A program made the translations under genes and the position numbers. The notes under the pieces were generated by a model. That model had not been told where the DNA came from. It did not search any database and worked only from the letters and a program-made list of their open reading frames with translations. A DNA stretch of 40,991 nucleotides from a virus (Duplodnaviria > Heunggongvirae > Uroviricota > Caudoviricetes), in IMG/VR virus record IMGVR_UViG_2896607866_000004, positions 1 through 40,991 of that record. One strand, 5' to 3'. Of this stretch, positions 39,997-40,721 are shown piece after piece (the stretch's first letter is position 1; every line of letters begins with the position of its first letter).

Positions 39997-40653
39997 CTAT
40001 TTTTTCCCTGAAGCGGAAAACATTACTACAGTACCTTGAACCTTGGTTTTAACATTCTCGAAATGCTCTGAGAGTATATGTGTTAAGCCTTCTTCGGAAT
40101 CTTTTGTGTTTGAAAAGATGCCTTTCTGATTGTAAATGCGCATCAGTTTTTGACCGAAGCTATTGTGCACAACTCCATCGCCAAGAATTGTGGCTCCGTA
40201 TAGAGTTCCATCATCAGTTAAGGCCTGCGCCGCATTGCGTATTACACAGCTTTTTGTAGATATATTTCCAGGCAGGCAGTGAAGAAGGTAAAACATGGAA
40301 ATGGAATCAAATTGACCATGTAACGCCGCAGGATAAGGTTCAAAAACATCATGGCTAATTTTATGTTTAATTTTTGATTCCCCAGCCCTTGTAGATGCCG
40401 CGTTCAGGCTAGCTTCGTTCAAATCCATTAAAGATATCAGACTACTCTCAGGTACGTGAGTAAGGTAAAACCCAGTTCCAACACCAATATCCAGATGGTT
40501 GTTACCTAAATGTTCCAGAAAGTGTGGAAGAAGGTGTTCCTTTGTAGGACATCCCCATGCAAGCCGATTTGATACTCCCAAAACCCACCAGTCATAAAGC
40601 TTTAGGGTAAGTGGTGTGTAAATTTTAGCCCCATCATCTGTGTTTTTTTTCAT
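39997..40653 (-). CDS. class I SAM-dependent methyltransferase (about 218 aa), cargo gene upstream of ipaH
   Basis: Rossmann-fold SAM-binding motif …HLDIGVGTGFY…; AT-rich like ipaH. Start ATG 40653 has an SD-like GGTGA; ORF track long form starts 40665. Confidence 0.7.
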   Translation of the reverse strand: MKKNTDDGAKIYTPLTLKLYDWWVLGVSNRLAWGCPTKEHLLPHFLEHLGNNHLDIGVGTGFYLTHVPESSLISLMDLNEASLNAASTRAGESKIKHKISHDVFEPYPAALHGQFDSISMFYLLHCLPGNISTKSCVIRNAAQALTDDGTLYGATILGDGVVHNSFGQKLMRIYNQKGIFSNTKDSEEGLTHILSEHFENVKTKVQGTVVMFSASGKK

Positions 40654-40721
40654 TAATTTCACCATATTATAGTTTTATTTGTGAATTAAATCAATTATGG
40701 CGATGAATTACAAGGGGTTAA

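Follow-up and report, generated by a model that had tools for sequence, protein, structure and literature searches.

An intact orthologue of Escherichia coli ybcY beside ipaHe: a probable lambdoid-prophage moron for a small-molecule-type methyltransferase

The stretch of DNA analysed here (hereafter the window) comprises 40,991 nucleotides (nt), positions 1 to 40,991 of the IMG/VR virus record IMGVR_UViG_2896607866_000004 (Caudoviricetes), near the end of which an open reading frame (ORF) for a class I S-adenosylmethionine (SAM)-dependent methyltransferase adjoins ipaHe, a gene for an effector of a type III secretion system (T3SS). Our analyses indicate that this ORF is an intact orthologue of Escherichia coli ybcY and probably a self-contained lambdoid-prophage moron that encodes a methyltransferase of the small-molecule type, and that its adjacency to ipaHe is historical and not functional. 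The gene is already known, being very common and annotated in thousands of genomes as ybcY or as "class I SAM-dependent methyltransferase". A gene that might be taken for an enigmatic companion of an ipaH effector is thus an accessory gene that is ubiquitous in prophages, and it provides no pointer to a new Shigella virulence factor.

The counterpart of the ORF in E. coli K-12 is ybcY (b0562), which is recorded as a pseudogene between tfaD and tfaX in the cryptic prophage DLP12, and pairwise alignment shows 99% nucleotide identity with the window across the gene and both of its flanks. The defect of the K-12 gene is a 2-bp deletion in an A-run at codons 5-7, which leaves it non-coding, whereas the window copy is intact; the intact form of the K-12 gene is WP_000239881.1 (a "class I SAM-dependent methyltransferase"). 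The arrangement of a tfa gene, an opposite-strand ybcY and a tfaX fragment is common to K-12, E2865 and phage ev243, which places the ORF in the YbcY orthologous group. A DNA search (at least 80% of the coding sequence covered at 95% identity or more) detected the gene in 3799 of 5426 complete E. coli genomes, about 70%, with up to four copies in some of them, and the index of a public assembly collection lists 13,959 blocks with exactly this protein sequence. The protein is also 100% identical to annotated proteins of lambdoid phages, including ev243, 2G7b and PhiR29; inducible, plaque-forming phages are among the carriers of the gene, which is present in just 15 of 50,697 phage records. Its family is PHROG 2132 (E 7.9e-157), with the function annotation "unknown". 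Literature searches found no functional study of ybcY, WP_000239881, the Salmonella homologue STM1638, the Rhodococcus equi island methyltransferase or moron methyltransferases, and the sole mention of a phenotype that was found is a Hha toxicity screen in which a K-12 ybcY mutant was the same as other prophage mutants (PMC2408971). YbcY is among the most prevalent uncharacterised phage-borne enzymes of E. coli, and K-12 represents a natural null for a substrate hunt.

The limits of the conserved unit were defined by BLAST comparison of the window with 16 loci (designated by L numbers) from E. coli, phages and Shigella-like genomes. A conserved "ybcY cassette" (Table 1) is shared with ipaH-free prophage loci at 97-98.7% identity, and in every locus compared its left edge is located at 39954-39957, whatever adjoins it, which is the 3' foot of the hairpin that follows the methyltransferase stop codon. 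Beyond this edge are found a complete tfa gene and tail fibre (L002, L015, L016, L020 and L021), other tail-fibre modules (L003 and L023), a KGG / DUF892 / Mn-catalase cassette (L018), ynaM / ynaE / resolvase (L022), or ipaH (the window, L001, L024 and L027). The hairpin foot constitutes a recurrent recombination joint and has the look of a hotspot at which lambdoid prophages exchange cargos next to their tail-fibre genes, and a recurrent junction with swapped cargos, ipaHe included, helps to explain the acquisition of chromosomal ipaH genes. On the other side, the start region of the methyltransferase gene abuts a C-terminal fragment of Tfa, as an earlier interpretation of the DNA made from its letters alone (the sequence-only reading) had stated. 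The Caudo_TAP match of this fragment spans only profile positions 75-130 of 131, and K-12 tfaX occupies the corresponding position. Nucleotides 40815-40969 reproduce, at 94-95%, the 3' end of the tfa gene that is found in complete form across the methyltransferase in ipaH-free loci (e.g. L002 7810-7964), and the cassette is therefore bracketed by direct tfa repeats in those loci; no second copy of this repeat is present in the window.

The sequence-only reading had also placed the methyltransferase gene directly upstream of ipaH on the same strand, with the MxiE-box region between them, and this arrangement is correct. The spacer is 315 nt long (39682-39996), equal to the modal upstream intergenic length of ipaH class 3 genes in Shigella (PMC9046306). 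It contains one exact MxiE box (GTATCGTTTTTTTACAG; 39800-39816, minus strand), the only one of the window, against a chance expectation of 0.03 per window, and the box is located downstream of the methyltransferase stop codon and not upstream of the methyltransferase gene. MxiE boxes lie 33 bp upstream of transcription start sites and the ipaHe 5' untranslated region is about 86 nt (PMC3299695), from which we infer that transcription of ipaHe starts near 39767, at a distance of about 230 bp downstream of the stop codon of the methyltransferase gene. The latter gene is consequently out of reach of transcription driven by MxiE. ipaHe is a neighbour that is located outside the methyltransferase unit.

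The genomic distribution of the pair is informative regarding its origin. When the query was extended into the ipaH promoter region, a full-length megablast match was obtained in only 9 E. coli genomes, and those with inspected annotation are enteroinvasive E. coli (EIEC)-like; the remaining matches begin at window positions 39954-39957 (query 255-258). Testing for co-occurrence with ipaH, as had been proposed earlier, thus leads to a divided answer: ipaHe adjoins the methyltransferase in all three of the Shigella/EIEC loci examined (L001, L024 and L027), which represent no fewer than two chromosomal settings (next to btsS in L001 and L027, next to zinT in L024), but the ipaH flank is missing from 3790 of the 3799 ybcY-carrying E. 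coli genomes. Within Shigella and EIEC, ipaHe and ybcY travel together, and their co-location is real and is explained by descent from a single insertion event. It is most parsimonious to suppose that the ipaHe module (about 38038-39954) recombined in beside a pre-existing ybcY, because the same cassette limits are found in thousands of ipaH-free genomes and ipaHe is confined to Shigella and EIEC. The earlier suggestion that the methyltransferase is a co-acquired and possibly host-targeting cargo gene has consequently to be given up, in view of the orthology to K-12 ybcY in a conserved prophage context and the presence of the ipaH flank in only 9 of 3799 carriers. That reading had itself named clear orthology with conserved context elsewhere, or absence of ipaH linkage in other genomes, as evidence that would count against it, and both are observed.

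The ORF has 222 codons, with the motif LDIGVGTGFY at residues 58-67, and in a hidden Markov model search it passes the gathering scores of four Pfam methyltransferase families (Methyltransf_12, 37.6 bits, E 3.8e-9; Methyltransf_23; Methyltransf_25; and Methyltransf_11), in agreement with the gene call first made from DIGVGTGFY. Met5 is the first residue of all 27 aligned homologues, and the sequence GGTGA is located five bases 5' of its ATG at 40653; hence this ATG is probably the true start, with a predicted product of 218 amino acids (aa). A predicted promoter of the gene, previously described as not obvious, can be discerned as TTGATT-17-TATAAT at 40694..40666 (minus strand), although sigma-70-like sites are in total no more numerous in the region than in shuffled sequence. 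Its -10 hexamer abuts the annotated ATG, which further supports the Met5 start, although the leader would still be very short; a weaker candidate promoter upstream (40721..40694) would give a normal leader. This promoter element recurs for K-12 ybcY, as TTGATT-17-TATAAC, among the "constitutive promoters" defined in vitro for the RpoD holoenzyme by genomic SELEX (systematic evolution of ligands by exponential enrichment), and the ybcY/tfaX spacer bears an H-NS mark in the same K-12 promoter list (PMC3946193). The hairpin downstream of the gene has a predicted RNA folding energy of -23 kcal/mol (z = -2.9; 0 of 200 shuffles as stable), and a strict terminator scan did not call it, its U-run being weak. 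The coding sequence has a GC content of 40.5%, lower than that of the window as a whole (50.6%) and that of the tail genes (56%); its proposed compositional likeness to ipaH is seen for the half of that gene encoding the leucine-rich repeats (LRR; 41.6%) but not for the NEL half (53%). The gene is present in some and absent from other related phages, and its composition is unlike that of the flanking phage genes. Judged from its sequence features, the unit fits a classical phage moron, with a predicted promoter and hairpin, low GC content, an orientation opposite to the late operon and presence/absence polymorphism.

An AlphaFold2 model based on a 28-sequence alignment (pLDDT 89.9, pTM 0.86) is disordered only at residues 1-14 and consists of an N-terminal helical lid (residues 18-36 and 41-52) on a seven-stranded Rossmann core. 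The core has the alternating beta/alpha order of class I enzymes, with the last two strands as a hairpin and an acidic residue ending strand 2, and motif I is present as LDIGVGTG at residues 58-65, in which D59, G61, G63, T64 and G65 do not vary among 28 homologues. When homologues of 56-90% identity are aligned, 59 columns show no variation, and these include motif I, D81, H105-D106 and D120-S121 as well as three family-specific segments, one located in the lid (Y24-D-W-W-V-L29), one that follows strand 4 (Y126-L-L-H-C-L-P-G133) and a third, Y178-N-x-K-G-I-F-x-N186. The positions equivalent to these three segments line the acceptor pocket in class I enzymes. The top Foldseek match in the PDB is a bacterial phosphatidylethanolamine N-methyltransferase (8ys9; E 1e-11, TM 0.62-0.66, 207 aa), followed by juvenile-hormone-acid methyltransferase (JHAMT), Plasmodium phosphoethanolamine methyltransferase and the alpha-keto-acid C-methyltransferase SgvM, and the best solved relative in PDB sequence and profile searches is JHAMT (E 1.7e-5), over the SAM-binding half. 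Searches of NCBIfam gave sub-threshold matches only (CpaM and RquA, about 17 bits against cut-offs of 175-180), and PADLOC gave one weak match (mad2, E 0.0033) confined to the generic SAM-binding fold. The structure prediction and fold comparison suggested in the sequence-only reading thus provided a confident Rossmann model with small-molecule enzymes as its best matches, and its view of the protein as a class I SAM-dependent methyltransferase that corresponds neither to any known Shigella effector nor to an enzyme of phage DNA modification finds support in the Pfam matches, the model, the Foldseek results and the motifs.

Based on these observations, ybcY may be regarded as an accessory gene, located between the tail-fibre genes and the prophage end, for a soluble Rossmann methyltransferase of about 25 kDa. 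In the lysogen, a sigma-70 promoter of its own would direct its transcription, which would run antisense to the late operon of the phage and would probably be damped by H-NS. In the cytoplasm, the enzyme would bind SAM by means of DIGVGTG, Asp81 and His105-Asp106 and pass the methyl group to a small metabolite or lipid head-group, and the invariant helix at the N-terminus (YDWWVL), the loop LLHCLPG that follows strand 4 and the segment YNxKGIFxN would hold the acceptor. Our best guess regarding the chemistry, which we give with low confidence, is that a small molecule of polar or anionic character is O- or N-methylated, because many of the structures nearest to the model are of enzymes with carboxylate, phosphonate or phospho-amine (phosphoethanolamine-type) substrates. 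In the same scheme, ipaHe together with its MxiE promoter would be one of several alternative cargos recombined at the foot of the ybcY hairpin.

The YbcY family extends well beyond E. coli. A HMMER scan of 1.84 billion representative proteins identified 423 clusters (formed at 50% identity) when E was limited to <= 1e-30, a number that rises to 1127 for E <= 1e-10. Most of them are stand-alone proteins of about 220 aa that align from end to end, and they reach Acidobacteria and lichen-forming fungi; in members of 300-740 aa, the N-terminal extensions showed no Pfam match except for an RCC1-repeat region in one fungal protein, and hence provide no clue to the function. Chromosomal homologues of 56-70% identity are found in Salmonella, Enterobacter, Citrobacter and Yersinia. 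The Salmonella homologue STM1638 (L006/L007, 7001-7663) is located immediately upstream of the small RNA gene rydC and cybB, with sseJ only a few genes away. RydC is an activator of the lipid methyltransferase gene cfa, and the adjacency of STM1638 and rydC may be coincidental. Homologues are also present on 603 Klebsiella plasmids, of which the one inspected is an IncFIB/IncFII plasmid with the gene between zigA and an alpha-hydroxy-acid oxidase/DoxX pair (L005 7995-8648), on Erwinia amylovora pEA29 beside a choline transporter gene (L026 6001-6660), and, at 31.6% identity, in the vap island of the Rhodococcus equi virulence plasmid pVAPA1643, beside the LysR regulator gene virR and with icgA/vapH (L025 7103-7717). 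The family thus turns up repeatedly in unrelated pathogens on plasmids linked to virulence or niche. No partner gene is shared among the Salmonella, Enterobacter, Yersinia, Klebsiella plasmid, pEA29 and R. equi pVAPA neighbourhoods, and the enzyme therefore evidently works alone on a generally available substrate. A broader proposal, which we consider unlikely, is that the family is a mobile small-molecule methyltransferase repeatedly captured by host-associated bacteria for neutralising or modifying a host- or microbiota-derived metabolite; if so, YbcY would be a genuine unrecognised lysogenic-conversion (niche-fitness) factor. As a further part of this unlikely proposal, read-through from the ybcY promoter, if constitutive, might provide ipaHe in Shigella with basal, MxiE-independent expression.

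Of the alternative explanations, the one that survives best, though improbable, is that YbcY is a phospholipid or phospho-base N-methyltransferase of the PmtA/PMT type that alters membrane head-groups of the lysogen. The top Foldseek match is an enzyme of this kind of similar length, followed by the Plasmodium enzymes, and the Erwinia homologue adjoins a choline transporter gene. The N-terminal helix of YbcY contains a Tyr that does not vary, and the same holds for a His that follows strand 4, a pair reminiscent of the Tyr19/His132 dyad of the Plasmodium falciparum enzyme PfPMT. However, no significant sequence or profile similarity to PmtA was found beyond the SAM-binding core.

It is very improbable that the enzyme is a DNA or RNA methyltransferase serving phage anti-restriction, epigenetic marking or host takeover. 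A regular-expression search of the protein found no (D/N/S)PP(Y/F/W) and no PC motif, the single domain of 222 aa includes no target-recognition domain, no nuclease or specificity gene adjoins it in the neighbourhoods inspected, transcription is directed away from the lytic operons, and the best structural matches are all small-molecule enzymes, with no DNA methyltransferase among the top ones. Because it lacks DPPY/PC motifs and any extra domain and its PADLOC match is weak and limited to the generic fold, YbcY is neither a DNA methyltransferase nor a recognised defence component.

Even less credence can be given to the possibility that the gene is a decaying, non-functional remnant in a defective prophage. 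It is consistent with the pseudogene in K-12, with the truncated tfa alongside, and with the decay of the window prophage, in which the stf and DUF4376 genes are frameshifted relative to EIEC. The ORF is nevertheless intact in the window and in 13 of 13 other E. coli and phage copies recovered (a weak argument, since the set was partly selected for protein identity), the gene is carried by inducible, plaque-forming phages, and the 59 invariant positions, catalytic motifs included, are maintained across genera.

The least probable explanation is a T3SS-delivered or MxiE-regulated host-targeting methyltransferase that was acquired with ipaH as a virulence cargo pair: the shared strand and 315-nt distance in 3/3 Shigella/EIEC contexts, the AT-rich composition resembling the LRR half of ipaH, the disorder of residues 1-14 in the model and the existence of effector methyltransferases (NleE/OspZ) are outweighed by an identical protein in about 70% of E. 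coli, nearly all without ipaH, and in free lambdoid phages, by a family that is not restricted to T3SS bacteria (K-12, Klebsiella, Enterobacter, Erwinia and the Gram-positive Rhodococcus, with homologues in bacteria that lack the Mxi-Spa T3SS), by the MxiE box downstream of the gene, by a Rossmann class I fold unlike that of NleE, and by a catalytic fold that begins at about residue 16, with invariant residues from Tyr16, so that the 14 disordered N-terminal residues seen in the alignment and model probably leave no room for a secretion or chaperone-binding region. We hence retain the interpretation of the ORF as a prophage moron.

Information regarding the features discussed in this work is summarized in Table 1.

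Table 1. Features of the methyltransferase unit and its surroundings in the window
Feature	Position	Strand	Basis and remarks
ybcY-type class I SAM-dependent methyltransferase ORF	39997..40665	-	222 aa, ATG start, uninterrupted (ORF list)
Sigma-70-like promoter (predicted), TTGATT-17-TATAAT	40666..40694	-	10/12 consensus matches (consensus scan); directly upstream of ORF
Terminator-like hairpin	39955..39991	-	Starts 6 nt after stop codon; followed by UUUCCUUU (39947-39954)
Conserved "ybcY cassette" (hairpin, methyltransferase, promoter, most of tfaX fragment)	39957..40946	.	BLAST
Tail-fibre-assembly protein C-terminal fragment (tfaX-like)	40722..40991	+	Divergent from methyltransferase; Pfam Caudo_TAP E 2.3e-26
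ipaHe promoter and 5'-untranslated-region module	39682..39954	-	Exact MxiE box; segment missing from ipaH-free E. coli
ipaHe (ipaH class 3, ipaH2202), NEL E3 ligase effector	38038..39681	-	547 aa, 1644 bp; Pfam NEL and LRR_TTSS, NCBIfam IpaH_Shig

The neighbouring effector gene is identified by its NEL domain (E 1.8e-76) and by NCBIfam IpaH_Shig (559.7 bits), and the name ipaHe follows its annotation in EIEC CFSAN029787 and the class table in PMC9046306; the CFSAN029787 ipaHe is annotated as frameshifted. Its LRR region (39195-39429) contains internal repeats in a 60-bp register (69% identity), a pattern that leucine-rich repeats are expected to show. An IpaH protein identical to that of the window was found on a single public record, that of a 4.83-Mb chromosome (L027; CP024470.1 2126344-2135987), where the prophage end is located beside btsS (yehU), with an insertion of the IS4 family and a dinI-like gene. 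In comparison to CFSAN029787, the window contains a 4-bp deletion in a GACT repeat at about 36918, which truncates the tail-fibre gene (35829-36932, then 36929-37282), and a 2-bp insertion at about 37354-37355 upstream of the DUF4376 ORF (37481-37858); hence, the tail-fibre module of this prophage is decaying. In the gap that separates the DUF4376 gene from the ipaH 3' end, the sequence shows an inverted repeat of high GC content with a T-run behind it (ggaggcccgggggcgggcctctgttttt; about 37967-38005), which looks like a tail-operon terminator convergent with ipaH. An allele count of 20 synonymous and 0 non-synonymous differences (summed pairwise, E. coli) for the methyltransferase gene was discarded, because exact identity of the protein had been the criterion by which most loci were retrieved.

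A number of known systems bear comparison with the unit described here. K-12 ybcY agrees with the unit in its position, with a tail-fibre-assembly gene on one side and the tfaX fragment on the other, in its orientation and in its promoter hexamers, and differs in its downstream neighbour, which is tfaD in K-12 and the ipaHe module in the window. The methyltransferases STM1638 and those of R. equi, pEA29 and the Klebsiella plasmids belong to the YbcY family, with full-length alignment at 31-67% identity, and are likewise stand-alone, uncharacterised and often located on mobile or virulence-associated DNA; however, their genomic settings are different and they are not phage-borne. The small-molecule methyltransferases JHAMT (7ec0), DhpI (3ou2), BelI/CysG (9fce, 9g0k), PfPMT (3uj7), PmtA (8ys9) and UbiG (4kdr) share with YbcY the seven-stranded Rossmann core, GxGxG, acidic residues after strands 2 and 3, the N-terminal helical lid and a length of about 200-260 aa. 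They are only 12-21% identical to YbcY (E >= 1.7e-5 by sequence) and lack its motifs YDWWVL, LLHCLPG and YNxKGIFxN, and because of this low identity and these motifs no substrate can be transferred from the solved enzymes.

The T3SS effector cysteine methyltransferases NleE/OspZ of enteropathogenic E. coli and Shigella resemble YbcY in SAM-dependent methyl transfer, in their location on horizontally acquired DNA and in their occurrence in the same organisms. These effectors have a non-Rossmann fold and, to our knowledge, are restricted to T3SS pathogens, whereas YbcY is a canonical Rossmann protein that matches Pfam Methyltransf families only and is widespread in bacteria without a T3SS. In organisation, the unit resembles the lambdoid morons (e.g. 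lom and bor of lambda, or the effector loci downstream of tail-fibre genes in prophages of enterohaemorrhagic E. coli) in its atypical GC content, in an orientation that does not depend on that of the late operon, in presence/absence among related phages and in a location at the tail-fibre end, and its predicted promoter and hairpin would make it transcriptionally autonomous, as they are. The characterised morons encode surface proteins, toxins or secreted effectors, whereas YbcY would be a cytoplasmic enzyme.
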